A stretch of 64,000 nt of DNA from an uncultured Verrucomicrobiae bacterium (GTDB lineage: Bacteria; Verrucomicrobiota; Verrucomicrobiia; Chthoniobacterales; UBA10450): positions 32,001 through 96,000 of the forward strand of contig CAWIBO010000001.1 in NCBI GenBank assembly GCA_963834385.1, given 5' to 3'. The notes below the pieces were generated by a model. The model searched no databases. It was given only the letters and a program-made list of their open reading frames with translations, and had not been told where the DNA came from. Every line of letters starts with the position of its first letter. Positions within the stretch are counted from its first letter, which is position 1. A program made the position numbers and the translations under genes. Positions 6,207 through 23,687 of this stretch are shown here, piece after piece.

Positions 6207-6265
6207 CTCGGCGCGCGAGGCGCACGGGATTCTAGAAGCGGAACCCTGCTCCGCAACCGCCCGGC

Positions 6266-8538
6266 TTAGCGGAGCTGAAAGAGCTCCACCAGGCCGAGCC
6301 CGGTGCCGCCGCCGGCCCCGCGCACCAGGGCGGTGTATCCGCCCGGGGCCAGCCAGGTGATCAGCGCCGCTTCTTCGTCGCCGGGTGGGTTGATGGCCGC
6401 CGCCAGGAGTTCGGTTTCCTGCGCATCACGCCAGTTATCATTCGCCGCCAGGAGGGCGCCCTGGGCGTTTCGAACTTCGAGCTGCGGATCGGCCAGAACA
6501 CCGGCGAGCCCGCTCTGCGCCAGCGAAGGTCCGCGGGCGCGCACGGCCACCTTCGTATTCACGCCCGCACCCTGCACAATCAACCCGGCGATCAGGACCT
6601 CATCCGCTGAACCAATCAGCCCGCGTGTGCTGAGGTTCGCGAGCTCGGAGCCGGCCGCACCGCCCAGATCGTAAATTTCCACCAGGCCCAGGCCAGACCC
6701 ATTCCCGGCGCCGGTCATCAAGACCGTGTAGGCGCCGGGCAAAAGTTCCGCCTCGATCAGGCATTCCTCGGGATGCGCCGGCGGCAAAGTGGCCCCGCCG
6801 GAGTTCTGCCAGCTGTCGTTGCGCGCGATCAGGCCACCGCTCCCGTCGCGCAACTCAAGCACGGGATCGGCCAGGGTGCCGTGCAAACCGGCCTGCGCCA
6901 GGGACCGCCCCAGCCCCCGCACCGCCACCGTGCGCGGTCCCTCCCCCGTGACGATGAACCCGCCAATCATGAGGTTGTCGCCCGTGCCCACCATTCCGCG
7001 GGCCGAAAGATTCGCCAGCCGGCCGGTGGCCGGGGCGAGCGCCGCCTGCGTGACCGCGCCGCCCCCGGAAGATCCTCCCCCGCCATCATATTCCGGGTCG
7101 CGCGGAAACTTCGCGTAGGGCAGACGCGTCCTCTTTGAAAAAGAAACGGTCGCCCCGGATACCGGGATCAAGAAAGTCACGCAGACCGGAGGCGGCAACG
7201 AGGTCGTCCTGCTCCACGCCGTCGCCGCTCACACCCACCGCGCCGATGAGCTGGCCGTTGCGATAAAGCGGGAAGCCTCCGGGAAAAATCGTGATGCCAT
7301 TCGGGAACCGCGGGTCGGGGGGCGGGGTCGAGAAAGATTCCTGCAGTCCAAAGAACGGACCGGGTTTGCTGGCGTCGATGCCGGGCGGATAATGATTCTG
7401 CGCGAGAAAACCGACCGTCCGGGTGGAGAACGCCTGGGCGTTGTCCGAAAACCCGACGGCGGTGCGCGCCTTCTGCGCCGCGACGTCCCAGCTGAACATG
7501 GTGGCATCACCGGTGCGAAACGCGCCCAGGACGGTCGGCGGGATGAGCGGGCTGTCGGGAAAATTCACCACCACGATGTAGGCCTCCATGCGCGAGCCAA
7601 GCGGCAACCGAATCCCGGCCCGGGTCGTGCGCACGCGGTCCGCCGCGAGCTCGATGATCCCGGCGACTTCCGCCGCCGTCAGGCGAGCCTGGCCGTTGAT
7701 CGGGGACCGTAAGGGGATCGCTGATGATCGGCTGCCGCACCTGGCCGGAGACGCCGCCAAAAGTGGCCGTCGGATACGGAAACGGAGGCGGCGGCGCGAC
7801 GATCGGGAACATCGCCGCGGCGTTGCCCGTCAGCACCAGCGACCCGAGCGACGGCGTGCTGGTGTTCACGTAGGCCAGGCTGATGCCGTTGATGAAAACC
7901 TTCTCGCCAGTGATGGAACTGGACGGGGCAAATCCCTTCTGCGCCGCCAAGGCGACGTCCTCGTCCTTGTCCGACCCGGTGACAAACCCTTCCGAGCCGT
8001 CGCCGGTGACGCCGACCCCGCCGACAAGAACGCCGCCCTTGTAGAGCGGAAGACCACCCGGCGAACCGGCGAGCGAGGTGCCGGCGATGGGCGATCCGAA
8101 AGTGCCGGGCGACGAACTGGTCGGGATCAGGTCGGTCTTCTTGAACCGGTTCACATCGGAGAAAGGAAGATTGGAGAAACCGACGCCCACGAGCGGGCCG
8201 GGCGGCGTGTTGCGGACGCCGGGTGGAAAGTGGTCCTGGATGATGAAACCGGCGGTGCGCGAGGAAAAAGCGTGCTGGTTACTGCTCAGGAACGCGGCCG
8301 TGCCCGCCTTGGAAACGGCGGCGGCGATCTCAGCCGGGGTGGGTTCGCCGCCGCGCCGATTCCAGACCACCAGGACGTAGCCTTCCCGGTCGGTCACAGC
8401 GATCACGGCATTCGGCGAAATCTTGTTCGCCCGCGTGGTCGCCTGGGTGACGACGCGGGTCACGTCGGCCACCGTGAGCTGGGCGCGCGCGGTCGCGGCG
8501 AACAAAAGGCTCGCCAGCAAAAGGGGGAAGAGCCGCAT
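6266..8538 (-). CDS. Secreted tandem GlcG/HbpS-like heme-binding protein with C-terminal duplicated ANISTR-type domain; frameshifts at ~7703 and ~7130
   Basis: Signal peptide MRLFPLLLASLLFAATARA; two domains with SKAGTA/QKARTA and PGGLPLYKGGVLVGGVGVTGDG / PGGFPLYRNGQLIGAVGVSGDG; Gly-Ser linker; then LANLSARG… and LANLSTRG… repeats. Stitched from three ORFs, each offset by one base. Confidence 0.8.
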
Positions 8539-8643
8539 GAACCTCCAGCCTAGGGAATGGCCACGCTGCCGCCAAGCCAAAGCGCCGGCCGTCCGCCGCG
8601 CAGGATTGCCTCGCTCCAGCCAATCCGGCATCCTCGAAATTGA

Positions 8644-10644
8644 ATGCCCGTCTTCTCCCGAGCGTCGATCATTGCCTGCGCGCTCCTTCTTTCCGGAGGG
8701 GGCGTTCTGCCGGCGCTGTTCGCGCTGGAGGAAAACGACCGTTACCGGCCGGACGTGGCGGCGCCCCCGGCTCCGCCCACCCAGTTCAATCCCGACCCGG
8801 GTGGTGGCAAGGAAGCCGAGCCCGAGCTGCCGCCGGAGCTTTTCCCGCCGATTCTCATGGAGGAAACCGACTACGGCGAAGAGCCGCTGCCGCGCTCGCT
8901 GGAGCTCCCGCGGCGCGGCGTGCGCGAAGTCTCGCCCCGGCGTGAAACGCTCGAGCAACCGGAGTACCCGGAAGAGGCGCGCGACCTGCCGGACCGGGCC
9001 CGGGCGGTGCCAAACCGCTGGTTCATCGGCTTCGGCCGCTGGCAGCGTTACGCCGATCCCTCGCACGAAACCCCCTACCAGACGGAAGGGCTCCGGCTCT
9101 GGCATCCCTATCTGCAAAGCACCCTAAAAGGCGACGCCCCGATTATCGGCCAGGACATTTTCATGAACCTGACCGTGGCCGACTTCGCCCAGTTCGAGAC
9201 CCGGCGACTGCCCGTCCCGAGCGGGGTCTCGACCAATCTGCCGAACAGCTCCGAGTTTTTCGGGCGCGGCGAGCAGCTCTTTGTCTCGAACGACGTCCAG
9301 CTCGGGCTCGATCTTTTCCGCGGAGAGACCGCCTTCAAACCGGTGGAATGGGCCGTGCGCCTGCTCGGGGTCTACAACAGCAACATCATCGACGTGAACG
9401 AGGCCAACCTGGTCGATCCCGATCCGCGCGGGTCGGAGGGCAACAGGACCTACCGGGCCAAGGACTTCTTTTCCCTGCAGGAGGCGTTCTTCGAATGGCA
9501 CCTTCGCGATCTTTCCCACACCTACGACTTCATCTCGTCGCGCTTTGGCATTCAGCCGTTCGTGAGTGATTTCCGCGGCTTCATTTTCAATGATTCCAAC
9601 CTGGGCGCGCGGTTCTTCGGGAACTACGACAACAACCACTGGCAGTGGAACCTCGCCTTTTTCGACATGCGCGAAAAGGACACTTACTCCGACCTCAACA
9701 TTCTCTGGGAAGCGCGCGACCAGCAGATCATCATCGCGAACGTCTACCGCCAGGATTTCCTGGTGAAAGGCTACACCGCCCAGCTCAGCCTCCACGCCAA
9801 TTTCGACAACGCCAGCCGGCATTACGACAAGAACGATTTCCTGGTCCGGCCGGCCCTGATCGGCGACGTGCGCGACCATTACGTCCAGGCCTACTACCTT
9901 GGCTGGGCGGGTGACGGTCACATCGGCCGGCTCAACATCTCCCACGCCTTTTACCAGGCGCTCGGTGAGGACAGCCATAACGGCATTGCCGGACGCCGGG
10001 TCGAGATCAATGCCCAGATGGCCGCGCTCGAACTCTCGATCGACAAGGACTGGCTGCGGCACAAGGTCTCGGTCTTTTACGCCAGCGGCGACAGCGATCC
10101 GCTCGACGGCGAGGGGACGGGCTTCGACACCATCCTCGACCGCCCGTTCTTTATTGGAGGGCCGTTCAGCTTCTACGCGCACCAGGGCTTCAATCTCGCC
10201 GGCACGGCGGTGAACTTTAAGCAGCGCGACAGCCTGGTGCCGAACTTCCGCAGCAGCAAAACGGAAGGCCAGGCCAACTTCGTCAACCCCGGCGTCCTCA
10301 TCGCCGGCTACGGGGCCGACGCCGAGATCACCCCGAAACTGCGCGCGTTCCTCAACGTGAACTACGTCTGGACCGCCACGACCGAGCCGACCAAACGCGT
10401 CCTTTTCACCGATCGCGCCAGCAATGACCTCGGGCTCGATTGCAGCCTCGGGTTCCAGTTTCGCCCGCTCTTGACGGATAACATCATCGTCAGCGCCGGC
10501 GCCGGCTTCTTCGTCCCGGGCGATGGGTATCGCGATATCTACCGCGCGAACACCCGCCCGGTGCCCGGTTTTCCCGGGCCGCCCGCGGGCGAGGTGGACG
10601 ATTTCCTCTACAGCGGTCTCCTGACCATCACGCTGACCTACTGA
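8644..10644 (+). CDS. Putative outer-membrane beta-barrel (porin-like) protein of the multiheme cluster
   Basis: Signal peptide, Pro/Glu-rich N-terminal segment, aromatic-rich amphipathic strands, C-terminal LLTITLTY; stop overlaps the cytochrome start (TGATG). Confidence 0.7.
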   Translation: MPVFSRASIIACALLLSGGGVLPALFALEENDRYRPDVAAPPAPPTQFNPDPGGGKEAEPELPPELFPPILMEETDYGEEPLPRSLELPRRGVREVSPRRETLEQPEYPEEARDLPDRARAVPNRWFIGFGRWQRYADPSHETPYQTEGLRLWHPYLQSTLKGDAPIIGQDIFMNLTVADFAQFETRRLPVPSGVSTNLPNSSEFFGRGEQLFVSNDVQLGLDLFRGETAFKPVEWAVRLLGVYNSNIIDVNEANLVDPDPRGSEGNRTYRAKDFFSLQEAFFEWHLRDLSHTYDFISSRFGIQPFVSDFRGFIFNDSNLGARFFGNYDNNHWQWNLAFFDMREKDTYSDLNILWEARDQQIIIANVYRQDFLVKGYTAQLSLHANFDNASRHYDKNDFLVRPALIGDVRDHYVQAYYLGWAGDGHIGRLNISHAFYQALGEDSHNGIAGRRVEINAQMAALELSIDKDWLRHKVSVFYASGDSDPLDGEGTGFDTILDRPFFIGGPFSFYAHQGFNLAGTAVNFKQRDSLVPNFRSSKTEGQANFVNPGVLIAGYGADAEITPKLRAFLNVNYVWTATTEPTKRVLFTDRASNDLGLDCSLGFQFRPLLTDNIIVSAGAGFFVPGDGYRDIYRANTRPVPGFPGPPAGEVDDFLYSGLLTITLTY

Positions 10645-13600
10645 TGAGGCTTCTCCCCAGCCTGCTTCTTCTGGCCGTGCCGGTCCTGGCGCAGCCGACC
10701 GGCCTTGGCCCGCCGACTTCCGTGCCGGCGGAGGCCTCGCTGACCCGGCCGCAGCCGCGGCCGCCGCGCAACTGGATCGACCAGACCGAGGCGCAGGCGG
10801 AGGCCAAAAGCGTCGGCTGCAACCAATGCCATGCCGGGGTCGAACCGATGCACGCGGCCCGCCACGTGGTCCTCGGTTGCACCGATTGCCACGGCGGCAA
10901 TCCCGCGCCCGGCCTGAGCAAGGAAGAGGCGCATGTTCTTCCCACGCACCGCGAATTCTGGCGGACCTCGGCCAACCCGCCCGGGTCCAATGTCTGGCTG
11001 AACCGCGAGTCCCCCGAGTTTATCCGCTTCATGAATCCGGGCGATCTCCGGGTGGCCGAACAATCTTGCGGTCTTTGCCACGGCGAGATCGTGCGCAACG
11101 TCCATCACTCGATGATGAATCACGGCGCCATGCTCTGGGGCGCCGCGCTCTACAATAACGGCTCCTTCCTGCACAAAAACTACCGCTTCGGCCAGGCCTA
11201 CGGCCCCGACGGCCAGCCGCTCCGCCTGGAGAATTACACGCCGGTGACCCCGGAAGAGACGCAGAAGCACGGCATCCTGCCCTACCTGGAGCCGCTCCCC
11301 CGTTTCAACCTCAGCCAGCCCGGCAACATCCTCCGCATCTTCGAGAAGGGCGGCGAGAAACCGCTCCTCCTTGGCGTGCCCACCGTGGGCGAACCCCCCG
11401 GGCGTCCGTTGCGACGTCTCTCCGAGCGCGGCCTCGGCACGCTCAACCGGACCGATCCCGTCTTTCTCGGGCTGCAAAAAACGCGGCTGCACGATCCGCT
11501 TCTGGGCTTTCTTGGCTCAAGCGATCACGCGGGCGATTTCCGTTCGAGCGGCTGCACCGCCTGCCATGTCGTCTATGCGAACGACCGTTCCCCGAACAAT
11601 TCCGGCTGGTGGAGCAAGTACGGCCACCAGGGCCTGAGCTTCAGCGGCGATCCCACCATTCCCAAGAACGAGCGCGGCCATCCCGTGATGCACCAGTTCA
11701 CCCGCTCGATCCCCTCGAGCCAGTGCATGAACTGCCACATGCACCAGGGCAACCTCTTCGTAAACCCGTATCTCGGCTACACCTGGTGGGACCAGGAGAC
11801 GGATGGCGAGTTCATGTACCCGGCGCAACAGCATGACCCCACCGAGAGCGAACTTGTCCGGGCCGCGCAAAAGAATCCGGAAGCGGCGGCCGCCCGCGGT
11901 CTTTGGGGCGACCGCGAATTCGTCGAGCGGGTGGCGGAGCTAAACCCGCAGCTCAGGCACACCCAGTTTGCCGACTACCACGGCCACGGCTGGGTCTTCC
12001 GCGCCGTCTTCAAGAAAGACCGGAAAGGCCACCTGCTCGACCGGGAAGACAACCCGATCTCACACCAGGACCCGCAGAAATTCCAAAAAGCCGTCCACCT
12101 CAAGGATGTGCATCTCGAGAAAGGGATGCAGTGCGTGGACTGCCACTTCGACCTGGACGTCCATGGCAACGGCCAGCTTTACGGTGAACCGCGCAACGCC
12201 ACCACCATCACCTGCGTCGACTGCCATGGCACGGTGGACCGGCGTCCCAACCTCGTCACCTCCGGGAACGCCGGCGCGGTGGACCTCGCCCGCACCAGCA
12301 ACACGCCCTTCGGCCCGCGCTTCACCTGGGAGGGAACGCGGCTTTACCAGCAATCGTCGATGTCGCCCGAGGTGCGCTGGGAAATTCCGCAGACGCTCGA
12401 CACGATCAATCCCGCCTCCCCGCATTACAACGCGAAGTCCGCCTACGCCAAGACCCTCGAGCGCGACGGCCAAACGTGGGGGGCGCGCCTGGCCGCGGAG
12501 GACGCGGAACGGGAACGCCGCCTGGCGCACGACAACACCCGGATGGACTGCCAGATCTGCCATACCTCCTGGGCCACCAGTTGTTTCGGCTGTCATCTCC
12601 CGATGAAAGCCAACCAGCGCGTGGCCCAGAACAAGTTCGAAGGGTGTGCTCGACCGGAATTTCACCACCTACAATCCCCAGGTGGTGCGGGACGACGTCT
12701 TCATGCTCGGCATCGATGGCACGGTGAAAAAGAACCGGATGGCCGTGATCCGTTCCTCCAGCGCGGTCGTGGTCAGTTCGCAGAACCAGAATCGCGAATG
12801 GGTTTATTCGCAGGCGCAGACCGTCTCCGCCGAAGGTTACAGCGGCCAGGCGTTCAACCCCCACTTCCCGCACACGACCAGTGGCCGCGGCACGACCAAG
12901 AATTGCACCGACTGCCATCTCTCCGCCGCCAACGATAACAACGCCTGGATGACGCAGCTGCTCGGCTTCGGCACCGGCACGGTGAACTTCTTCGGCCGGT
13001 TCGCCTACGTTGCCGAAGGCACGAAAGGCCTGCACGCCGTCGTCTGGACGGAACGCGAGGAACCGCAGGCCGCGCTCGGCAGCCACCTTCATCGCCTGGC
13101 CTACCCGGCCAATCATGCCGCGCACGTGGCCGGGCACGGCGAACTCAAGGAGGCCTACGAACATGGCGGCAAGGATGTGCGCGACCTGGTGCTGCGCGGC
13201 GAATATCTCTACACCGCCAATGGGCCCGGCGGCCTGGAGGTCTTCGACGTCGCCAATATCGACCAGAAAGGATTCTCCGAGCGCATCGTCACCACCCCGG
13301 TCTCGCCCCTCGGCCAGCGCACGCACGTGCCGACGCCTTACGCCACTTCCATTGCCCTCCCGAGCACGCTCGCCCTTGATCCCGGCCGGGAACGTCTGCC
13401 GGAAAACGAGGAGCAACCGATCGACCCGGTTTACGCCTACGTCTTCCTCTCGGATCTGCAGGAGGGACTCGTGGTGGTCAACGTCGCCAGCCTCGTCGAT
13501 GGCAATCCCGAGAACAATTTTCTGCGCAAGGATGTCTCCTTCAACCCCGATGGACTCCTCAGCGGCGCGACCTTTGTCGCCGCCGCCGGGCATCGCCTTT

Positions 13601-14430
13601 ATCTCACCGCCCCGGCGGGTCTCTTCGTCATCGATGTCTCCGACCCGATGCGACCCCGCCTGGTCGCGAGGGCGGGCGAGGGTTTCCTGCGCAACCCGCG
13701 CTGCGTCGCCATCCAGTTCCGCTACGCCTTTGTCACGGACGACGATGGCCTCAAGGTCTTCGAGATCGGAAACCCGGAGCGGCCCCGTCCCCTGCCGACG
13801 GCCACGGTGCCGCTGCGCGCAGCCGGCCGCCTTTATCTCGCCCGCACCTACGCCTACGTCGCCAACGGGCCGGAGGGCCTGGCCCTGGTCGAGATCGAGA
13901 ACCCGGAACGGCCGCGCCTCGACCAGATGTTTAATGCCGGCGGCGCGCTCAACGACACCCGCGCCGTCCAGGTGGGCAGCGTGAACGCTTCGCAGTTCGC
14001 GCTGGTGGCGGACGGGCGAAACGGTCTTCGGGTCTTGCAGTTGATCTCGCCGGACACGGTGCCCGGCGCGCAGGGATTCAGTCCGCGACCGAACCCGCAG
14101 TTGATCGCGACCTTCCACACCCATGGCGAGGCGGTGGCCGTCTCGCGCGGCCTGGATCGCGACCGTGTGGTCGATGAAACCGGCGGCCAGACAGTGGTCT
14201 TCGGCCGGCGGGGCGCGCGCCCGTTCCACCTCTCGGAAATGTATCCGTTCTATCTGCGGCGCTCCGACGGCCGGCCCTACCGCGTGGAGGATGTGCGCGA
14301 GATCGACGGAAACGTGGTCACGACCTCGGGCCGCACCCTCGCGCCTGTTCCACGGCCGTCACCCACGCCCGGGGAAGAGACCGAGCCGGCGATTGAGCCG
14401 ACGCCTTTTCCGCTGCCGGAGAGTGAATGA
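10644..14430 (+). CDS. Large decaheme c-type cytochrome fused to an LVIVD-repeat beta-propeller; frameshift at ~12643
   Basis: Signal peptide; CNQCH, CTDCH, CGLCH, CTACH, CMNCH, CVDCH, CVDCH, CQICH, CFGCH, then CTDCH after removing one G at 12642-12644; repeats [57 protein letters not shown]. Confidence 0.88.
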
Positions 14431-14432
14431 CG

Positions 14433-14462
14433 TTGCCCAGCCCCGCTTAAGTCTGTTACAAC
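14433..14462 (+). promoter_or_regulatory. Putative sigma70-type promoter of a leaderless ferredoxin mRNA
   Basis: TTGCCC-N18-TACAAC with TG extension, 7 nt before ATG 14470; no SD. Confidence 0.4.
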
Positions 14463-14469
14463 CAACGAC

Positions 14470-14700
14470 ATGGCAGATCCCGCTAGCAAACAACCCGAGA
14501 ATGTTCCCGGCCCCTGGTATGTCGATACCACCTGCACCCCCTGCCGCGTTTGCCTGGAAGAAGCGCCTGATCTCCTGAAGTACAACGCCGACGAAAGCGC
14601 GGTCTTTTTTCACAAGCAGCCGGAATCGCCGGAGGAAAAGGACGCCGCCCAGCGCGCGATGGACGTTTGTCCGACGCTTGCCATCGGGAACGACGGCTAG
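14470..14700 (+). CDS. Small single-cluster ferredoxin
   Basis: CTPCRVC … CPTLAI, 76 aa, acidic. Confidence 0.9.
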   Translation: MADPASKQPENVPGPWYVDTTCTPCRVCLEEAPDLLKYNADESAVFFHKQPESPEEKDAAQRAMDVCPTLAIGNDG

Positions 14701-14703
14701 GCT

Positions 14704-16131
14704 TCAGCGTTTCCCCAGCATCATTTCGCGGAGATTGCCCGCGCTTTGCGCCCCTGCCGCGACCGCGACCGGCGCCGCGTGGAAGGAGTGGCAGGTGATG
14801 CAGTTGCTCGCCACTTTCCCCTGCGGGCTGTGACAGCTCACGCAATCCGCTTTCACCGGAAGCAGGACGTCGGAGGTCGCGCGGCTGCCCGCGGTATGAT
14901 GGCAATCGTCGCAGCGCACGCTGGCGTGGCTGGCATGATCAAAAAGAGCGTGCGGCATCCAGCGATCGATCTGCTGCGGCTTTGCCACCGACGGCGCCAG
15001 GCCGGCGGACGGCCTGACCTCATGGCAATAGGCGCACCCATGGAACATCGCCCGGACGCCCGGCGCGGCCCCTTCCTCCGCCTTGTAGGGATCGGTCGCA
15101 AAGAAGACCTGGCGTTCCAGGGCTTCGCCTGAACGAACGCGCGCCTGCAAATTTTTTATCGCACGGGTGGCGAAGGCGCTGATCTGGCCCGGTTCGGTCA
15201 TTCCCCGTTTTCGCGCCAGATCGGCATACTGGGAGGGGAGCGACCGCAGAAAACCGCGGACCAGCCCGGGATCGCCGTGGGGAAGAGTGAGCTCGGGCGC
15301 GGCCGGATCGAATTGCAGGGCATGGCAGGCCTGGCAGTTCCGCTCGAAGGTGATCCGTTCGAACTGCCGGCCTCCCGGCTCGGGCGTGTGACACGCCTGG
15401 CAGTCCATTTTTTTTCCATGCAGCGGCGGGATGTCCGCCTCGAAATGGCGCTGATGATTAAAGCGGAGGGTATTGGGATCCTTGAACGCCTCCTGCTTCA
15501 CGCGGAACTCGGGGTGCGCGCCGGCGAATGATGCGAACGTGCTGGTGAAGCCGGCGGCCGGCCGAGCCAGCGCCGGGATGGTTTCGTGCGGCCGGACATG
15601 CCGGAGCTTGAAAGCCGAGGCGGGCATTTGCGCGCCTTTGGCCGCGGCCGCCTGCATCAGGCCAGGATTATTGTGGCAGGCCAGGCAATCACTGTCGCGC
15701 GCCACCACGAGAGCTGTTCCGCGGTGCTCCTGGTGGCAGGCGGAGCAGGAGGTATCGCTCACCACGTTGGGCGCATGAAAATCGCGGCCTTCATGGCAAC
15801 TCGCACAGGCCGCATCGAGCCGGGCGAAGGCGGTTTGCTGCCGCAGCGCCACCCCAAGGTTCTCCACCGTGGCCGGGAGAGCCGCGCCGGCGCCATGGCA
15901 GGCGGCACAATTATTCTCCAGGGCGGTGTGACCGGGTGAGAGCGGACCAATGCTATAAAAATCGCCCGGCGCACTGCGGCTGAAGTAAACCGCGGCGGCG
16001 ATACCGCCCAGGATCGCCAGCGCGGTCACGATCATCCGGGCTTTGCGCCACGGATGCATCACTTTGTAATAGGCGAGGTTGCCTTTGTATCGCTCCGCGA
16101 TCTGCTTCTGTGTTCGCTGGGGGCGCGCCAT
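14704..16131 (-). CDS. Membrane-anchored decaheme cytochrome c (c3/c7-like motifs)
   Basis: N-terminal TM helix; CAACH, CASCH, CSACH, CLACH, CQACH, CQACH, CAYCH, CDDCH, CVSCH, CITCH; FNHQRH and FDHASH distal-His motifs. Confidence 0.92.
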   Translation of the reverse strand: MARPQRTQKQIAERYKGNLAYYKVMHPWRKARMIVTALAILGGIAAAVYFSRSAPGDFYSIGPLSPGHTALENNCAACHGAGAALPATVENLGVALRQQTAFARLDAACASCHEGRDFHAPNVVSDTSCSACHQEHRGTALVVARDSDCLACHNNPGLMQAAAAKGAQMPASAFKLRHVRPHETIPALARPAAGFTSTFASFAGAHPEFRVKQEAFKDPNTLRFNHQRHFEADIPPLHGKKMDCQACHTPEPGGRQFERITFERNCQACHALQFDPAAPELTLPHGDPGLVRGFLRSLPSQYADLARKRGMTEPGQISAFATRAIKNLQARVRSGEALERQVFFATDPYKAEEGAAPGVRAMFHGCAYCHEVRPSAGLAPSVAKPQQIDRWMPHALFDHASHASVRCDDCHHTAGSRATSDVLLPVKADCVSCHSPQGKVASNCITCHSFHAAPVAVAAGAQSAGNLREMMLGKR

Positions 16132-16134
16132 GGC

Positions 16135-17377
16135 TCAATAGCGGAACAACGCCACGACGGCGTGCCAGATGGTGAGGATCACGAGAAGAATCGAAAACGG
16201 AACGTGCAGGAAAAGCCAGCCGTGCAGCCAGTGATGCAGCCGGGCCTGCAAATCGAGCATGCGCCGTTCATCACACCAGGCCTGCATTTCCTCCACCCGG
16301 ACGCGATGCGCCGCGGTGACCCGCAGCTTGAAGACCCGGAAAAGGTCGTCGGAAAATCGGTCGGTCCCGAGCCGGCGACGATCACCGCGACGGGCCTCCA
16401 GGTACGGGATGACGTGGTCCTCGAGCAGATCAAGCAACGCTGTCTCTGATTCTTCCTCCGTCTCCCGGGCCGAGTCCGGCGGAGAATCCTCCGCAGCCGC
16501 CGCCACGACCGCTGGCGCCGGCGCCGGCTTGTCCCCGGGCGGCACCGGATTCCCCTCCGGCACGCGTGCGGTGGGTGTGCCCGGCGTTTCCACGCCGCGC
16601 CCGGCCAGCTCACCTTCGCCCGCGGTGTTCTTCTTCTCTTCCGCCGGGCCCGGCGAGGCCGTCCCGGTGACCGTTTCGCCGGTAACCGTCGAGCCGGACG
16701 CTGATTTGGCGCGGGCTGTCGGCGTGACCACCGCCGCGCTTCCCGCCATCGGCGTCGTCCCGGCTGTGGCCGCGCGCGCCGGCGTCGCGGCGGGCGCCCC
16801 TTTGTCCGCCTCGGCGGATTGTTCCGCCGTCAGCGCTTTGCGCATTTTCTCGGCCGCCGCCAGCAACTGGCCCCGGATGTGCGGGATTTGCTCGTAGACC
16901 GTTTCGCCCGGCAGCCGATCTTTCATCAGGCGCGGCAGCCAATGCTGCAGGGCCAGCCCAAAAAATCCGCTCGCCATGACAATGAGGTAGAGCCAGAGCA
17001 GCAGGCTGGTCATGGGACCGCCAAAGCGCAGGCCGCCATGCAGCGCCACCAGCGGAATGGTCAGGATCGTGAGCCAGATGTGGGCGCGCAGCCAGACCTG
17101 CACCCGCCCGATTTTCCAAAGCGGAACCTTCTTTCGCAGCCCCGAGGAGGAGGGCAAAGAGAAAAATCGCCAGGGCCGTGCTGCCGAAGATCAGTCCGAG
17201 CGGTGTTCCTCCCGGCAGACCCCGCGGCGGCGGCTGCGGCCCGAGCCAGCCCGGAAGACGCATCGGCACCGGCGTCCGGTCCGGATGAAAATTGGCCAGG
17301 TAAAGAACCAGCGCCCCCAGCGAGGCCAGGCAGACGAAAATGGCCCAGGGGAGATGCGCACGATTAAAAATGCGCAT
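16135..17377 (-). CDS. Polytopic membrane protein, ferric-reductase-like di-heme cytochrome b; frameshift at ~17141
   Basis: Two TM His pairs with H-X13-H spacing (AHIWLTILTIPLVALH; LHVPFSILLVILTIWH); N-terminus in ORF 16610-17377 joins after removing one base in the 17140-17143 run. Confidence 0.75.
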
Positions 17378-17382
17378 GTTGG

Positions 17383-19056
17383 CTAGTGCGTATGGCGCCG
17401 CTCCCGCGCAGAACGGCCGCTTTTCGGCCGCAGGATCTCCGTTTCCGCGTCAAAGATGTCGCTGAAAAACCGGCGGGGATCGACCCGCTTGGCCGCGTCG
17501 TGCGGACAGGCATAAACGCAACTGGGGGTGGAAAGCTCGGTGCAAAGATCACAGGTGTTCGCCTTGTAGGCGGTCGTCTTCTTCTGCTCGATCTTCACCC
17601 GCGGCGCTTCCCCCTCCCTTTTCGCCTTGATCTCCGTGCGCACTTCCTTGAGCAGCTCGAAGGGATGCATGTTGATGTTGCCGTAGGGACAAAGCTCGGC
17701 GCATTTGCCGCAGCCGATGCACCAGTCCTCGATGATGATCTCGAGGTTTTCCTTGCGCCGGATCGAGCCCACCGGGCATTGCGTCATGCAAAGCGGGTCG
17801 CGGCAGGAACGGCAGGCGGTCGCGACGAGGTAATGATCGTAACGCAGGCCGTCGCGCAGGAGGCGGGAAACACCGTCGTGCGCCTGCGCGCAGGCCTGGA
17901 CACAGGCGTCGCACCGGGTGCAATTGTCGAGATCGATCAGGAGAAGGTTCTGCGCTTCAAAGAGTCCCTGGTCCAGAAACTCGTTCAGTTGCAGACCGGC
18001 CGGAGGGGCCTTCGTCTCGGAAGCTTGCAGACGGGCCGCCGCCATCTCTTCCACCTGCGCCTGCACCGCCGGGAACTCGCGCACCATGTCGTGGAAATCG
18101 GTCGCCGGGATTTTCACCAAATCCACGGCGTCGAGCGCGGTGCAGGTGGCGGTTCGCCGGATCGCGTGCAGCAGGGCGATCTCCCCGAAATAATCTCCCC
18201 GGCTCAGGTAGGTGCGCACGATCTCCCCGCCCGGCATCGATTCGGAGACGCGCACCACGCCGGAGCGGACCAGGAAAAAGGCGTCCGCCTCGTCGCCCTC
18301 CCGGCAGATCACCTGCCCCTGGTTGAACGAGACCAGCTCCACCTGGTCTTTCAGGCGGGCAACGAACTCATCCGTCAGCGGTGCCAGGAGCGGCACCCGG
18401 CGGAGATGATTGCTCAGGGAACGTTCGCGATAATTCTTCTCCATCTCGGTCTTGAACGATGTCCCCTTGAAGGTCGGCACCTTCACCTTCGACGCGGCCT
18501 TGGAGGCGTCCGAGACCTGTCGCGTCCCCACCAGCATGTCGAGCACCACCCGCAGCATTTCCACAATCACCGAAGGCTCGCTCGTCTCCACCGTGGCCGA
18601 GCGCGGCTGAAAGGTCCGGCAGGTCATCTCGCCGAAAAGCTCGCCCGCGCCCATCTCAGCCAGGGGTCGGTGCGTCGGCAGATCGACATTGGCATCGATC
18701 CCGATGAACTGCCTTCGGCTGGTGTCCGGCCGCGCGTCATCGGCGTCGTCGACCAGGAAACTCTTCATCCGCTTGAAACTCCGCCCGATGAAACCGGCCG
18801 CCGGCCGGGTCCGGAGATGGGCCATGGGATTGCGAATGAAAATGTTGACCTTGCCGGAGACGATATAGAACGCGGTCGAGCCGAATTCCCCCTCCTCACA
18901 GACCACTTCGCCGGGCGCGAGCTTGTGCACCACGGCGGAACCCCTGGCCCAGTTCTCCAGCTGGGCACGCGGCATCTCCTGCAGCGCGGGAAAATACCCG
19001 AGCAGCTGGTCAACCGTCAGCGGTGTGCCGCCGGAAAGTTTGGCTTCGCCCTCCAT
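17383..19056 (-). CDS. Two cyclic-nucleotide-binding domains fused to a 4x[4Fe-4S] (DmsB/NrfC-type) domain
   Basis: GELFGEM…PRSATV and GDYFGEIA…RRTATC cassettes; CTRCDACVQAC, CRSCRDPLCMTQCP, CIGCGKCAELCP, CDLCTELSTPSCVYACP. Confidence 0.9.
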   Translation of the reverse strand: MEGEAKLSGGTPLTVDQLLGYFPALQEMPRAQLENWARGSAVVHKLAPGEVVCEEGEFGSTAFYIVSGKVNIFIRNPMAHLRTRPAAGFIGRSFKRMKSFLVDDADDARPDTSRRQFIGIDANVDLPTHRPLAEMGAGELFGEMTCRTFQPRSATVETSEPSVIVEMLRVVLDMLVGTRQVSDASKAASKVKVPTFKGTSFKTEMEKNYRERSLSNHLRRVPLLAPLTDEFVARLKDQVELVSFNQGQVICREGDEADAFFLVRSGVVRVSESMPGGEIVRTYLSRGDYFGEIALLHAIRRTATCTALDAVDLVKIPATDFHDMVREFPAVQAQVEEMAAARLQASETKAPPAGLQLNEFLDQGLFEAQNLLLIDLDNCTRCDACVQACAQAHDGVSRLLRDGLRYDHYLVATACRSCRDPLCMTQCPVGSIRRKENLEIIIEDWCIGCGKCAELCPYGNINMHPFELLKEVRTEIKAKREGEAPRVKIEQKKTTAYKANTCDLCTELSTPSCVYACPHDAAKRVDPRRFFSDIFDAETEILRPKSGRSARERRHTH

Positions 19057-19188
19057 GACTGGTCGTGCGGGGCACGAACGTGAATGCCCGGATTGTATCG
19101 GTGCCGCAAAAAGGCGGGAAGAATTTAATCCTCGGGGCCCACGCGATTTAGGTTGGCTTCGCCGGGCGCCCTGCCGGTAACATCGGGC

Positions 19189-20313
19189 GTGCCGCTCCGC
19201 CTCTTCCTTCGGCTGCTGGGCTGCGCGGCACTGCTCGCGGCACCGCTCGCCGCAGCCCGCAATGCGGAACCGATCGCGGAGGAGTTTGTCGGTGTCGCCG
19301 GATGCAGCTCCTCCAGTTGCCACGGCGGCGCCGGCCCGCAACGCAACCAGGTCATCACCTGGAAACGCGACGATTTTCATGCCCGCGCTTTTGCCATCCT
19401 GACGAACGCCCGCAGCGCCCGCATGGCGGAAGCGCTCGGCGGACCGGCCGCGCCGGAAAACGCGCGTTGTACCGTCTGCCATTCACCGTTTCAGGCGGTG
19501 GCGGCCGCCCGTCTCCAGCCGTCCGCCCGGCCGGATGAAGGCGTCTCGTGCGAGAGTTGTCACGGCGCGGCCGAAGGCTGGTTGCGCGGTCATACGCGGC
19601 CTGACTGGAACCGCGCCATCGCGCTCGGCGCCGGCCTGCGCGACCTGGCCGATCTTTATGGCCGCGCCAATGCCTGCGTCGCCTGCCACCAAAACATTGA
19701 CGCCGATCTCGTCGCCGCCGGGCATCCGCACCTTCTCTTTGAACTCGATCGCCAGGGCGCCGCACAGCCGCCGCACTGGACCGATCCGCCGGAGAACCGC
19801 GGGGCGCGCGCCTGGCTGGTGGGACAGAGCGTGGCCCTGCGCGAACTGAGCTGGAAGCTGGCCCTTGCCCCGCAGCCGGATCCGCAGGTTCACGCGCAAT
19901 GGGACGGTCTTCGCTGGCTTTTCGGGCTGATCCACGCGGCCGCGCCGGCGCTTGGCCCTTTCGACGCCAATAGCCCCTACGCAAGCATGCAGACCCAGGC
20001 CGATGCCATGGCCCGGCGAATCGCGGCGGGCGCGCTCCCGCCGCAGACGGTGCCGCTTCTTCGGCAAACGCTCGCAGCCGCCGCGCTCGAGCAGAATGCC
20101 AACGAGCCAGGAGGCCCGGCCCTGTTTGAGCGGGCCCAGCGCCTCCTCTTCGCCCTCGACCGGCTGACCCTCGCGGCCGAGGGAGCGCGTACCCCCGATC
20201 TGGAAAAGGCTCTCTCTGCCCTGCGTGACACCCTCGTTTCCCGCGACCGCTTTGATCCCCGGCAGTTCAACGAAGCTTTACGTTCGTTCCGCGCTGCGCT
20301 TCCATCGTCCTGA
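19189..20313 (+). CDS. Exported multiheme cytochrome c (c554-like domain)
   Basis: Signal peptide; CSSSSCH (CX4CH), CTVCH, GVSCESCHG, CVACH; start codon (GTG 19189) uncertain. Confidence 0.85.
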   Translation: MPLRLFLRLLGCAALLAAPLAAARNAEPIAEEFVGVAGCSSSSCHGGAGPQRNQVITWKRDDFHARAFAILTNARSARMAEALGGPAAPENARCTVCHSPFQAVAAARLQPSARPDEGVSCESCHGAAEGWLRGHTRPDWNRAIALGAGLRDLADLYGRANACVACHQNIDADLVAAGHPHLLFELDRQGAAQPPHWTDPPENRGARAWLVGQSVALRELSWKLALAPQPDPQVHAQWDGLRWLFGLIHAAAPALGPFDANSPYASMQTQADAMARRIAAGALPPQTVPLLRQTLAAAALEQNANEPGGPALFERAQRLLFALDRLTLAAEGARTPDLEKALSALRDTLVSRDRFDPRQFNEALRSFRAALPSS

Positions 20314-20321
20314 AGAGACCC

Positions 20322-21470
20322 ATGCCCGATACCCCTTCCCCTGCCGTTCCCTGGACGCGACAAAATCCCTACCCGGCCCGCCTCGTCGTCAACCGCCGCC
20401 TTAACACCGACGAATCGGAGAAGGACACGCGCCATTTCGAGCTCGACCTGAAGGATTGGGGCCTGAATTACGACGTCGGCGATTCCATGGCGGTCTATCC
20501 GACGAACGATCCCGCGTTGGTCGAAGAGATCATCACCGCCCTCGGCGCTTCCGGTGACGAGGAAGTGCCCGGCAAAACCCAGCCGGCGCCGTTGCGGCAG
20601 GCGCTCCTCAGGGATTATCGCATCACGCAAACAACCCCGAAGTTTCTCAAGGCCATCGCCGAGCGCGCCTCCGCCGCGCCCCTCCTCCAGGAACTGTTGG
20701 AACCGGAACGGAAACAGGACCTCGACACCTACCTCTGGGGCCTCGAGGTCATCGATTTTCTGGTCGAACATCCGTCCGCCAAATTCGCGCCCGAGGAATT
20801 CGTCGGGCTCATGCAAAAACTGCAGCCCCGCCTCTATTCCATCGCCTCCAGCGCAAAAGCCTTTCCCGAGCAGGTCCATTTTACGATCGATATCGTCCGT
20901 TACGAGAGTCATGGCCGGCAGCGCAAGGGCGTCTGCTCCTCCTTTCTCGCGGAGCGTGCCGCCGATGTCGCGGTGCCGGTTTATCCGACGCCTTCAAAAC
21001 ATTTTCGGCTGCCCGACGATCCCGCCACCCCCATCATCATGATCGGGCCCGGGACAGGCATCGCCCCTTTCCGCGCCTTCCTGCAGGAACGCCGCGAGAT
21101 TGGCGCCCACGGGAAGGCCTGGCTTTTCTTCGGGGCGCAGCGCGAAAAATGCGATTACTTCTACAAGGAGGAATTCGAAATCCTGCAAAAGGACGGGTTC
21201 CTCACCAACCTGACCTGCGCCTTTTCGCGGGACCAGACGCACAAGGTCTATGTGCAGCATCGGATGAAGGAAAGCGCGGCCGAACTCTGGCGCTGGCTGT
21301 AGGAGGGCGCGCACTTTTACGTCTGCGGCGATGCCAAGCGCATGGCCAAGGATGTTGATGCCATGCTCAAGCAGATCGTGCAGAGCGAAGGCAGCCTGAC
21401 CCCCGAGCAGGCCAACGAGTACGTGGAAAAGCTGAAAGCCGAGAAGCGCTACAAACGCGACGTCTATTAA
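20322..21470 (+). CDS. CysJ-like FAD/NADPH oxidoreductase lacking the flavodoxin domain; in-frame TAG at 21300-21302
   Basis: PRLYSIASS, GVCSSFL, MIGPGTGIAPFRAF, AFSRDQ..KVYVQH; after the TAG the same frame continues EGAHFYVCGDAKRMAKDV…KRYKRDVY to TAA 21470. Confidence 0.88.
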
Positions 21471-23687
21471 GAGAGAGCTTTAGGCGCCCCCGCCATTCTC
21501 TCCCGAACCGCAGCCGCGGCCGCCACCAACATCACGCTCAGGCAGGCAAAAGCCGCCGCGCTCCCGGCCACCAGCCACCAGGGCCGATAAACGAGTTCCA
21601 GTCGGCCTGCGCTTCCCGCTGGCACTTCCAGCACCGGCGCCAGCCCGCGATAACTCCCCAGGGCAAGGCGCCGCCCATTCAGATACGCCCGGTATCCTTT
21701 AAAGTTTGGCCGGGAAAAAATGAGCAGCCCCGGCCGGTCTCCCGCCGGCACGGAGAGATCGACTCCCACGGATTGCCGGCCCGCCTCAACCCGGGTCACG
21801 CTGACCGGCGCAAAATTTTCTCCCGGGCGCGTCTCAATTTCCGTCAATGACCGGACCGCTCCCAGCGGCGCGCCCCGGCGATGATAAACCTTTCCCTCCC
21901 TGCTGAAATACACCAGACGCCATTCCTCCAGCGGCAGCGGCGCCATTTTGTAGGCATCCGCCACGATGATCCCATCGACCCCGAGCAGGGCCGGCCCGCT
22001 CTCCGGACCGCCGTGCCAGCGCAGAATCCATTCCGCTGTCGACGGATCGATTTCACCATGAATGGAAGCAGACAGGTCGGCGGCGACGCCCCCGGCCAGG
22101 ATGGGACTGTAGCCATTGAGGAAACGCAGGCCCGCCCAAAACGGCGTGCTCCCGGGACGAACCACCAGCCCGGTTTCACCTTCCGCGGCCCCAACTCGAT
22201 ACGCTTCTTCCGGCGGCGGATAGACGCTGAGATAAAGGCGAGCCGGGTCGAGCGGAGCCGGGTCCTTCAAGGCCGGACCAAAGGGATACTTGGGCACGCC
22301 CACATTGGTCGGAATGATCCAATAGACCGCCAGCAGACTGAGCAGGGTCACAACGGGGAAGGCCCAGAACCGCTGCTCCGGCCGCCACCGTTCCGCCGCG
22401 ACCCAGGCAAGGCCAATCGCGCCCAGGATCGCCGCCAGCGGCCAGTGATAAAGCGCGCCCGGATCAATCCACGCTCCAATAAAACCGATCAGGTTTACTG
22501 CCAAAACCGCCAGTGACGCCGGGGTCAGGAACCGCCACCGCCGGACAAAGCCGCTCTCCAGACATCTCGCTCGCCTGCAGGAAATGCGCGGCCGACATGG
22601 CCAGCACCAGATGAAAAAAGGGCAGCCAGCGAAAACTCCAGCGAAACACCCCGGCGCTCGGCAGGGTGGCGATCAGGGCGAGCAGGAGCAGCAGGCCGAT
22701 CTCCCAGCGGAAGCGCGAAACCAGCCGGCGCCCGTGCGCCAGCAGCGCCCAGATGATCATCGCCGGGACCGCGAGGCCGGTCGCCAGTTCCACCCCGGTG
22801 TGCGGACGTGATCGTCCCAGAAAATCAGTCCACGCCACGGTCCACGAAGGAAGAACCAAACCCGGCCACGCCGGGAGCGGCACGGTCCATGGCCAGTTCA
22901 AACCGGCGTGCGCGGCCCGGACCGATCCCTGCACATGATCAAAAAGCGCAAGCCAGGCCGGCGCGGAAAGCCCAAGCCCCAGCAGCGCGCCGGCGAGCAA
23001 CGGATAAACCGCAGCGAGCACACGGCCGCTTTCCCAGGCGCGGACGGCGAGCCAGAGATAAAGCACGCCCAGCATCAGGACCGTGTAAGGAAACCCGCCC
23101 GTGATCAGCAGATAGACAAAGGGCGCCGGCCAGAGAAACCGCCACCGCGACCCCCGGGATGCGAGCGCGCGTTCGCCCGCCCACCAGCACCAGGGCAGCC
23201 AGGCAAACGCGGCCAGCGCGCCGAACCAGTTTGTCGCGCCCCAGCAAACAATCCAGCCGTTGCCGGCCGCCACCAGCGCGACCAAAAGCGCGAACGGTTC
23301 CCTTAGCCCGCGGCTTCGCGCGAGCAGATAGCCGCCGGCGGCGAGCACTCCCAAATGGACCAGCGAAAGCGCCGCCGCCTGTTGCGGAAAGGAAAGCGGC
23401 AACTGCCAGAGCGCCACCACCACCGCATTCACAAAAAGACTGAACGTCCCAAACTGGTATTCGCCCGCCAGGTTTCCGCCCACCCATGAGGATGAGCTGA
23501 GCAATGGCCAGGTTCCTTCCGCCCAGCTCCGGGCGACGTCGGCGAACACCGGCAAAATCGAGATCGCGAAATCGTCGTTCCAGAAAAGCAGGGGATCGCG
23601 CCCATAAAGAATTCCCCAGAACAGCAGGACCACCCCCGCGGCGCCGGCGGCGCCGAGCCAGTCCCGCCGGGAAATCGGATCGGACAC
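21467..23687 (-). CDS. Large polytopic membrane protein, YfhO-like/GT-C glycosyltransferase candidate; frameshift at ~22550
   Basis: FWNDD motif after TM1, many TM helices, periplasmic domain with NGYSP, C-terminal ELVYRP+TM; two ORFs offset by one base. Confidence 0.65.

Follow-up and report, generated by a model that had tools for sequence, protein, structure and literature searches.

Putative export of electrons from NADPH to the cell envelope: a verrucomicrobial locus in which a PCC4/ptd-like inner half is joined to a ten-haem propeller protein and a predicted outer-membrane channel of 18 strands

Do the redox genes clustered in the genome of an uncultured Verrucomicrobiae bacterium form a single line for electrons across the cell envelope and, if so, from which donor and to which end? 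The question is raised by the locus at positions 6266-21470 of a 64,000-nucleotide stretch of DNA (GenBank assembly GCA_963834385.1, contig CAWIBO010000001.1, positions 32,001 to 96,000; hereafter, the window), which belongs to a 2.9-Mb genome (89.6% complete). Judged from its genes, the set is a likely route for electrons from NADPH to the cell envelope, and it is probably controlled by cyclic nucleotides (cNMP). What appears to be new is the outer half, a predicted 18-strand channel with a ten-haem propeller protein, joined to an inner half that is already known.

The locus comprises nine genes in four transcription blocks (Table 1), as stated in the preliminary description, which was made from the sequence alone; a six-frame scan of positions 6000-21700 also reproduced exactly its count of 23 CxxCH motifs in coding frames plus one CX4CH (CSSSSCH, at 19303). 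The CxxCH motifs are distributed among the decahaem/LVIVD gene (9 + 1), the anchored decahaem gene (10) and the c554-like gene (3). The two 15-kb bins spanning the locus hold 13 and 11 haem motifs; the mean of the other three large contigs is 0.44-0.51 per 15 kb. Elsewhere in the genome, multihaem genes were found only on contig C1 (a separate, membrane-anchored cytochrome with eight haems at C1:109385-111406, beyond the window) and contig C2 (one with five, see below). The genome further encodes a haem-copper oxidase and the machinery for cytochrome c assembly, and it gave six cyclase-domain matches. The Pfam families found in the locus were HbpS-like (twice), LVIVD, Fer4_13, Cytochrome_C7/c3, cNMP_binding with Fer4, Cytochrome_C554, and FAD_binding_1 with NAD_binding_1; the same scan of the locus proteins matched no family for the barrel and the membrane protein. 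The earlier statement that every gene but the barrel carries cofactor motifs is weak for the HbpS-like one: in the C-terminal domain of PduO, the histidine of helix 1 is a haem ligand, and this residue is not present in the aligned homologue.

Table 1. Genes of the locus, by window position (pLDDT, predicted local distance difference test; pTM, predicted template modelling score; aa, amino acids)
Feature	Position	Strand	Evidence and remarks
Secreted protein, two HbpS/GlcG-like domains and a C-terminal domain	6266..8538	-	Pfam PF03928, E 5e-10 and 1.5e-15; frameshifts at about 7715 and 7129
Outer-membrane beta-barrel, 18 strands, AlgE/Occ-like fold	8644..10644	+	AlphaFold pLDDT 89.9, pTM 0.89
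Secreted decahaem cytochrome c fused to LVIVD beta-propeller repeats, about 1,260 aa	10644..14430	+	10 CxxCH; LVIVD E 2.5e-15; frameshift near 12645
Ferredoxin, 76 aa, extra paralogue of the housekeeping one	14470..14700	+	Fer4_13 E 7e-19
Membrane-anchored periplasmic decahaem, PtdG / PCC4 10-haem type	14704..16131	-	10 CxxCH; N-terminal helix
Five-helix inner-membrane protein, four invariant His, predicted di-haem b, PtdF / PCC4 inner-membrane-protein type	16135..17377	-	two WX3HX13H and SGxxG; frameshift at about 17140
Cytoplasmic protein, two cNMP-binding domains and a 4x[4Fe-4S] domain, no flavin domain ("bare" PtdE type)	17383..19056	-	Pfam
Secreted c554-like tetrahaem (3 CxxCH and CX4CH), helical C-terminal part, PtdD type	19153..20313	+	Pfam C554 E 4e-9
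CysJ-like FAD/NADPH module without flavodoxin, flanking housekeeping gene	20322..21470	+	Pfam, NCBIfam; in-frame TAG 21300-21302

Four of the genes have counterparts in a known system. PCC4, in the accessible part of its description, consists of a porin, cytochromes with 4, 5 and 10 haems, a membrane protein of five helices that bears SGXXG and two WX3HX13H motifs and, upstream, an Fe-S gene (He, Barco, Emerson and Roden 2017, PMC5566968). The ptdABCDEFG genes, as far as the accessible part of the preprint goes, encode a pentahaem, a porin, an FAD/NAD(P) oxidoreductase, a tetrahaem, a cNMP/4Fe-4S protein, a ferric-reductase-like membrane protein and a decahaem, of unknown function (Elbon, Stewart and Glass, bioRxiv 10.1101/2023.11.21.568154). 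By gene content, PCC4 and ptd are apparently one system under two names. The preliminary description knew of no functional characterisation; the inner four genes have already been described under these names, from genomes and transcripts only.

The tetrahaem, the Fe-S protein, the membrane protein and the anchored decahaem of the window are 24-35% identical to ptd-type genes (E 1e-13 to 4e-10 for the decahaem and the tetrahaem). The anchored decahaem has 24-28% identity (E 1e-12 to 4e-10) with the decahaems of three ptd-type operons from the same family, and it reached only 18-27 bits with the DmsE/MtrC models, of which the cut-offs are near 200. The cNMP/Fe-S protein is 31% identical (E 1e-65 to 7e-70) to the PtdE-type proteins of loci L123, L125 and L127, contains 16 Cys in its Fe-S domain and two intact GE-x9-R[ST]A phosphate cassettes, and is encoded directly upstream of the membrane gene as in PCC4/ptd; a start at 19482 was rejected for it, the 142 upstream codons overlapping the c554 gene and the homologues having about 560 amino acids. 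The c554-like protein matched cytochrome c554 (1BVB) with E 0.0014. The membrane protein bears two WX3HX13H motifs and SGFFG, as do all 23 homologues, in which its four His are invariant at 21-64% identity. These form two HX13H pairs, on helices 3 and 5, so that the ferric-reductase two-haem signature ascribed to the protein was confirmed, and it is predicted to bind two b haems. With its profile, only chance helical matches were obtained in the PDB. Its cytoplasmic loop (window 16460-16850) holds an Ala/Pro/Thr-rich insert of about 130 residues, which was seen in relatives with a bare-type Fe-S protein and not in the ptd type.

Full ptd/PCC4-type sets were found in five genomes of the window's family (L123-L127, from G025, G006, G020, G001 and G005, respectively), one of which (G005) carries both this and the barrel/decahaem system. 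Complete operons of this type occur, then, in soil Chthoniobacterales; in the accessible parts of the PCC4/ptd papers, Verrucomicrobia are not named, and the carriers listed are mostly marine or freshwater Proteobacteria, Nitrospirales and Planctomycetes (PMC5566968; 10.1101/2023.11.21.568154). In a tree of 36 Fe-S proteins, made with a quick fallback method that gave long-branch warnings, the ptd-type ones were placed among the barrel-associated ones, which suggests that the outer half was exchanged at least once.

How would electrons enter this inner half? A housekeeping ferredoxin, near 50% identity, was present in every relative. The orthologue of the extra ferredoxin (57-83% identity) was found in 13 of 13 relatives with a bare-type Fe-S protein vs 3 of 47 others (10 genomes of this class were assigned from neighbourhoods, and 3 from identity and frame length), and it adjoins the CysJ-like gene in 11 of the 13. 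It likely donates, on this pattern of sequences, to the cNMP/Fe-S protein. Note that related genomes are not independent, so that all co-occurrence counts here are patterns and not tests, and that the tallies of relatives include the unpublished genomes G002, G007 and G014 (without G002, the 18/18 given below and the 13/13 become 17/17 and 12/12).

Among relatives, three other inputs were seen, which are not homologous to one another: a TrxR-like FAD domain fused to the cNMP/Fe-S protein (Sphingobium L078; Acidobacteriota L062 and L141-L144), an FAD/NAD/[2Fe-2S] gene directly upstream of the Fe-S gene (L055, L056, L058, L060, L063, L066 and L073), and a NuoEF-like gene with a NuoG-like N-terminus (L002, L016, L119-L122 and L128). 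In L016:16921-21462 and L002:2940-7521, the last is a reused diaphorase module, the N-terminus being fused to the cNMP/Fe-S domains. None of the three was found in the window genome beyond one NuoEF-like match at 33%. Since relatives use three or more forms interchangeably and the window's form is tracked by an additional ferredoxin, the NAD(P)H input does belong to the system, as had been proposed. L148:10259-13735 encodes a 1,159-aa protein with FHA, a zinc ribbon, eight haem motifs, 4Fe-4S and TrxR-like FAD, adjoining the membrane gene. A metallo-beta-lactamase-fold/receiver/GAF protein, metallophosphoesterases and cyclase-like genes (so labelled by sequence) lie in or beside several clusters (L128:8749-10572; L078:21615-22463; L006, L021 and L029). 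These neighbours could be cyclic-nucleotide turnover genes, although the cyclase-like family is multicopy.

The CysJ-like reductase, taken as part of the locus in the preliminary description, turned out to be a near-universal flank gene (58 of 60 relatives), and its candidacy as a locus-specific gene was rejected. It directly follows the upstream major facilitator superfamily (MFS) gene in 7 of 12 barrel-free genomes of the same family, from which it follows that eight genes were inserted between the two; no ferredoxin was found in any of 20 regions around the CysJ-like gene. It is duplicated in 8 of 12 same-family genomes of the bare type vs 1 of 24 others. The match to the CysJ profile covers positions 228-541 only. 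An assignment as sulfite-reductase flavoprotein was rejected, both the flavodoxin domain and the haemoprotein partner being missing; the latter (NIR_SIR) was not found in the window genome, nor in 35 of 36 genomes of the family. Of 36 genomes of the family, 35 retain such a flavodoxin-less reductase, as do two genomes of 0.9 Mb, and it may be the order's general ferredoxin:NADP+ reductase. Because the family is nearly without sulfite reductase (1/36), the protein may still be the donor, and its function as a ferredoxin reductase that possibly serves this locus is plausible.

As for the outer half, the product of the gene at 8644 is a barrel, as anticipated: the AlphaFold model, built from a 90-sequence alignment, has 18 strands. 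Its top Foldseek match was AlgE (E 2e-18), to which it was superposed by VIA with Z 27.8 and a root-mean-square deviation of 2.9 over 368 residues, and the nearest solved folds are AlgE and then the Occ substrate channels (Z 23-28). MtrB was not among the 50 folds listed, an absence that alone excludes nothing, and no Pfam or NCBIfam match was obtained. The barrel belongs to a large family, of which 660 clusters (50% identity) score below E 1e-30, and the nearest relatives are from metagenome-assembled genomes of Chthoniobacterales (65-79% identity). The barrel stop and the decahaem start overlap as TGATG, in agreement with the translational coupling described before. A barrel-decahaem fusion in L147 was rejected, as the two matches lie in different frames.

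Each of the 23 distant homologues compared keeps the ten haem motifs of the decahaem/LVIVD protein (in some cases as CX4CH), and 12 further His are kept in at least 21 of the 23. Its similarity to ExtM is weak (E 6e-18, far under the model cut-off), the profile of the decahaem region matched nothing in the PDB at E 0.1, and its Atlas neighbours are unnamed LVIVD-cytochrome clusters. In other lineages, the decahaem has FHA domains in addition. Identity with the Tenderia uet cluster was rejected, the uet LVIVD protein being unrelated in context as far as the accessible part of its description goes.

We tentatively favour, with somewhat less than even confidence, a cNMP-gated, quinone-independent export of electrons from cytoplasmic NADPH to the ten-haem protein under the 18-strand outer-membrane channel, by which a small substrate would be reduced. 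Electrons would pass from NADPH to the FAD of the CysJ-like reductase, the dedicated ferredoxin and the four [4Fe-4S] clusters of the cNMP protein, then through the two b haems of the membrane protein to the anchored decahaem, the c554-like tetrahaem as a shuttle, and the decahaem/propeller protein at the barrel; the small substrate would enter by the narrow barrel and meet the decahaem in the periplasm. The observations are the cofactor motifs, the predicted barrel fold, the joint occurrence of the two halves, and the exchange of inputs and outputs among relatives; we infer every transfer between partners, which way the electrons run, their gating, where the decahaem sits and that quinones take no part. 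The transfer from the Fe-S to the membrane protein is supported by the fusion of these domains in L134 and L145. The cNMP domains would gate the line, and control by second messengers is plausible because both cNMP cassettes are intact and because of the FHA domains in other lineages. Outward flow through a di-haem b is favoured by the redox and the membrane potential, would run the latter down and would conserve no energy, which fits a regulated reducing service, as in NOX and ferric reductases, more than respiration.

The outer half could also be read as a true trans-envelope wire, which we consider rather unlikely: the same inner half would then serve minerals, humic matter or other cells by way of the decahaem/LVIVD protein, or a tethered cytochrome, placed in or through the barrel. 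Consistent with a wire, the coupled barrel and decahaem genes share one locus in 53 of 56 loci of at least 19 kb, and, of 5 genomes in which the barrel has no decahaem/LVIVD gene nearby, 4 have that gene at another place; the conserved His suffice for all-bis-His haems; and PCC4/ptd have been proposed as such conduits in the accessible parts of their papers. A c3-type tetrahaem is moreover fused to the N-terminus of the barrel homologue in L135:7001-9358, L148:1994-4189, P0137, P0149 and P0209 (3 of 269 proteins plus 2 of 20 Acidobacteriota loci), which ties the barrel to haem chemistry on the periplasmic side. Against a wire, the barrel has 18 strands vs about 26 for MtrB, the locus has no lipoprotein or surface cytochrome, and the cultured carriers include Sphingobium and Sphingomonas, which are aerobes not known for mineral respiration. 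With an 18-strand AlgE-like barrel and ten haems thinly spread over about 700 of 1,260 residues, a substrate channel over a periplasmic redox protein fits better than a porin-threaded cytochrome. Of the complete trans-envelope conduit described earlier, the barrel, the multihaems and the NAD(P)H input stand; passage of electrons through the outer membrane is less likely.

A quinone-linked or inward system, in which Fe(II) or Mn(II) would donate through the membrane protein to the quinone pool or NAD(P)+, is improbable here. It is what He et al. modelled for PCC4, which, in the accessible part of the paper, was found in Fe(II)-oxidiser genomes and taken, in the model, to donate to quinone (PMC5566968). 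The membrane protein is cytochrome b-like, its homologues matching Ni_hydr_CYTB (5 of 23) and Ferric_reduct (PF01794; 2 of 23, best E 0.009) weakly, and the Fe-S domain is similar to subunits of the DmsB/HybA type, which belong to quinone-linked complexes. However, the cytoplasmic 4x[4Fe-4S] partner, which is sometimes fused, and the three NAD(P)H flavoprotein forms argue for pyridine nucleotides, and reduction of NAD(P)+ from Fe(II) would run uphill against both the redox and the membrane potential.

Do the genes belong together outside the window? We compared 98 barrel loci (76 from the barrel search, 2 plasmid-collection records and 20 from Acidobacteriota, Proteobacteria being represented by plasmid-collection records and protein hits only). 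Counted by gene, these loci held the decahaem (80), the HbpS-like gene (74), c554 (32), the membrane gene (31), the anchored decahaem (27), the Fe-S gene (21), the ferredoxin (13) and the reductase (10). The seven core genes occurred together in 13 loci of three phyla. One region of Sphingobium herbicidovorans holds all seven, and L062 and L141-L144 are one-direction seven-gene operons. The full set of nine was found in 0 of 98, a count that in part reflects the flanks, of about 10 kb, and many short contigs (56 of the 98 loci have at least 19 kb). The nine-gene layout of the preliminary description was thus not seen elsewhere; what is conserved is a unit of seven or eight genes, which is often split. 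At the genome level, the barrel was present in 18 of 60 relatives, with the Fe-S protein in 18/18 of these vs 7/42 others and the c554 orthologue in 17/18 vs 2/42; among 201 Acidobacteriota, the barrel was present in 23 and the membrane protein in 23/23 of these vs 23/178 others (mostly weak matches). Co-occurrence across phyla was thus borne out. By carrier, this variant is found in 15 of 36 genomes of this soil Verrucomicrobia family, 23 of the 201 Acidobacteriota sampled and cultured sphingomonads. Some Acidobacteriota loci (L130, L131, L134, L135 and L140) have extra nine-, eight- and four-haem cytochromes and a protein of about 280 amino acids beside the HbpS-like/decahaem gene. Records titled Bifidobacteriaceae, Chitinophaga and Klebsiella (L052, L056 and L059) hold Verrucomicrobia-like copies (53-56% identity, same layout) and are probably mislabelled bins.

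It is likewise improbable that these are two or three loosely related modules: an inner trio for general periplasmic reductant supply or redox sensing, a barrel/decahaem/HbpS-like set that takes up or processes a ligand akin to haem or metal, and a bystander ferredoxin and reductase. In favour of this reading, close relatives have the modules on separate contigs or at distances of 0.37 Mb (G012) and 0.9 Mb (G017), the 7/42 and 23/178 genomes above contain the inner half but no barrel, the reductase is near-universal and the upstream MFS gene is near the barrel as often as the ferredoxin (13 and 13 of 56 long loci). Against it, no barrel-bearing genome lacked the inner half (18/18; 23/23), one-direction operons of seven genes exist and the c554-like gene tracks the barrel by genome.

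Several points weigh against the gated export of electrons that we favour. Bare-type Fe-S proteins form one clade, so that the link with the ferredoxin is one event and not 13; the CysJ-like gene is present with or without the system, and its window copy carries an in-frame stop. In 8 of 39 Fe-S proteins, the search pattern missed a clear cNMP cassette. In the accessible text, He et al. read the membrane protein as quinone-active (PMC5566968). The inner half is also paired with the other outer half, that of the ptd type (L123-L127), and in nine close relatives the Fe-S/membrane/decahaem trio stands apart from the barrel among unrelated genes, with no barrel, c554, ferredoxin or reductase in the 11-20 kb around it. 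For the decahaem region, an AlphaFold model (30-sequence alignment) reached a pLDDT of only 34.9, and the 12 spare conserved His for ten haems imply no open catalytic haem, so that a pure wire is possible.

A wider form of the favoured export model, which is unlikely as it stands, would be a widespread second-messenger-gated, quinone-independent line from NAD(P)H to the cell surface, with four interchangeable cytoplasmic inputs and at least two interchangeable outer ends, here a new type of porin-cytochrome unit with an AlgE-type barrel, by which aerobic soil bacteria would reduce something outside on demand. If true, the line would correspond, in bacteria, to NADPH oxidase with 24 c haems added.

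The reading frame is broken by frameshifts at about 7129, 7715, 12645 and 17140 and by the in-frame TAG at 21300-21302, of which the last is absent from the preliminary description. Relatives are intact at all five positions; for the decahaem gene there are 38 single-ORF (open reading frame) homologues, and reductase homologues read through the TAG position. The extra base at 7129, and likewise that at 17140, is missing from one contig each of two soil DNA runs (near-identical to the window at 17140), which points to assembly errors there. These runs share only 7-10% of words and gave short contigs, so that the proposed repair is supported by reads at two of the five positions, and not at 7715, 12645 and 21300.

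The HbpS-like protein has an intact 788-aa homologue in L010. Its C-terminus (window 6266-7030) is a duplicated domain that matches no Pfam family, recurs on more than 20 other proteins of the window genome and may be a surface-sorting signal. One copy is located at C1:86186-87025 (window 54186-55025), beside a legume-lectin domain (window 54186-56592). Otherwise, positions 31450-63582 look ordinary, with a sulfotransferase, a PAS/GAF histidine kinase, an NMT1-type ABC transporter, an Lhr helicase, a type II secretion system F-family protein, a beta-lactamase-family serine hydrolase (52552-53694), a tetratricopeptide-repeat protein and a MacB/FtsX permease.

How, then, does the locus compare with known systems? 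NOX, FRE and MsrQ are ferric-reductase-domain proteins with two HX13H pairs, fed by NAD(P)H and regulated. The window protein shares the four His as HX13H pairs on helices 3 and 5 and a basic loop after helix 2, as well as a likely outward flow from NAD(P)H with regulated input. It differs in that no FAD/NADPH domain is fused, the feed being four [4Fe-4S] clusters behind two cNMP domains, and in that the electrons would go to multihaem c cytochromes. For the PCC4 membrane protein, the ferric-reductase link is stated in the accessible part of PMC5566968.

With AlgE and Occ, the barrel shares its 18-strand fold, whereas identity is 8-14%, no polysaccharide genes are in the locus and the barrel is coupled to a decahaem. 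With MtrCAB/MtoAB/PioAB and the Geobacter OmbB-OmaB-OmcB complexes, the locus has in common several multihaems and the coupling of a decahaem gene to that of an outer-membrane barrel. The differences are the 18-strand AlgE-like barrel, the large and haem-sparse decahaem with a propeller, the lack of an extracellular lipoprotein cytochrome and an entry linked to NAD(P)H, not quinol. The early impression that the parts are unlike MtrA/B/C holds for the strand number (18 vs about 26), and neither decahaem reaches the DmsE-family cut-off. A verrucomicrobial porin-multihaem cytochrome cluster (He et al. 2017 mSphere, PMC5615132) pairs, in the accessible text, octahaem cytochromes with porins that have 20 strands or more; by that description, the present locus, with ten haems and 18 strands, is set apart. 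EET3/EET4 (Fiorito et al., bioRxiv 10.64898/2026.05.27.727921) are likened there to Mtr/Omc and are set apart by this description only, as far as it is accessible; overlap with EET4 is possible. Both have the phylum and a porin beside multihaems in common with the window locus. Udaeobacter and Limisphaerales are named as carriers in the accessible parts (PMC5615132 / 10.64898/2026.05.27.727921). In the literature covered, which excluded most subscription papers, there was no description of a barrel/decahaem-LVIVD/HbpS-like outer half and no experiment on any part.

The closest system is PCC4/ptd, named twice and, in the accessible parts of its papers, never tested experimentally for function. 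The likeness extends over the tetrahaem, the cNMP/Fe-S protein, the five-helix membrane protein and the decahaem, the last three in the same order, with a porin nearby. In contrast, the window genome is without the pentahaem (PtdA) and a PtdC-type reductase, and the locus adds the decahaem/LVIVD and tandem HbpS-like proteins and takes its input by a ferredoxin. The PtdA-type pentahaem of L127, which matches cytochrome c552 (5ZE8) and so fits the homologue cited for PtdA in the accessible text (T. tepidum c552), had no match among the window proteins. In the whole genome (89.6% complete), the only five-haem ORF is the 256-aa protein on C2, which we take to be ACIII ActA-like. The barrel profile against the L127 gene at the PtdB position (PtdB being assigned by position) gave no detectable relationship (hhalign probability 0.5%, E 0.12). 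The PtdC-type protein of L056 had no tblastn match in the window genome at 1e-6, and the CysJ-like gene shares only the NAD-binding part with this type (25% over about 100 amino acids). By these predicted parts, the locus shares the inner half of PCC4/ptd and falls outside the system on pentahaem, porin and reductase. With all seven core genes present in S. herbicidovorans, function is open to knockout in a laboratory strain. The variant shows the inner half of PCC4/ptd to be a module that can be used again with other NAD(P)H inputs and other outer ends, which argues against the quinone/iron-oxidation model and for a regulated export of electrons.

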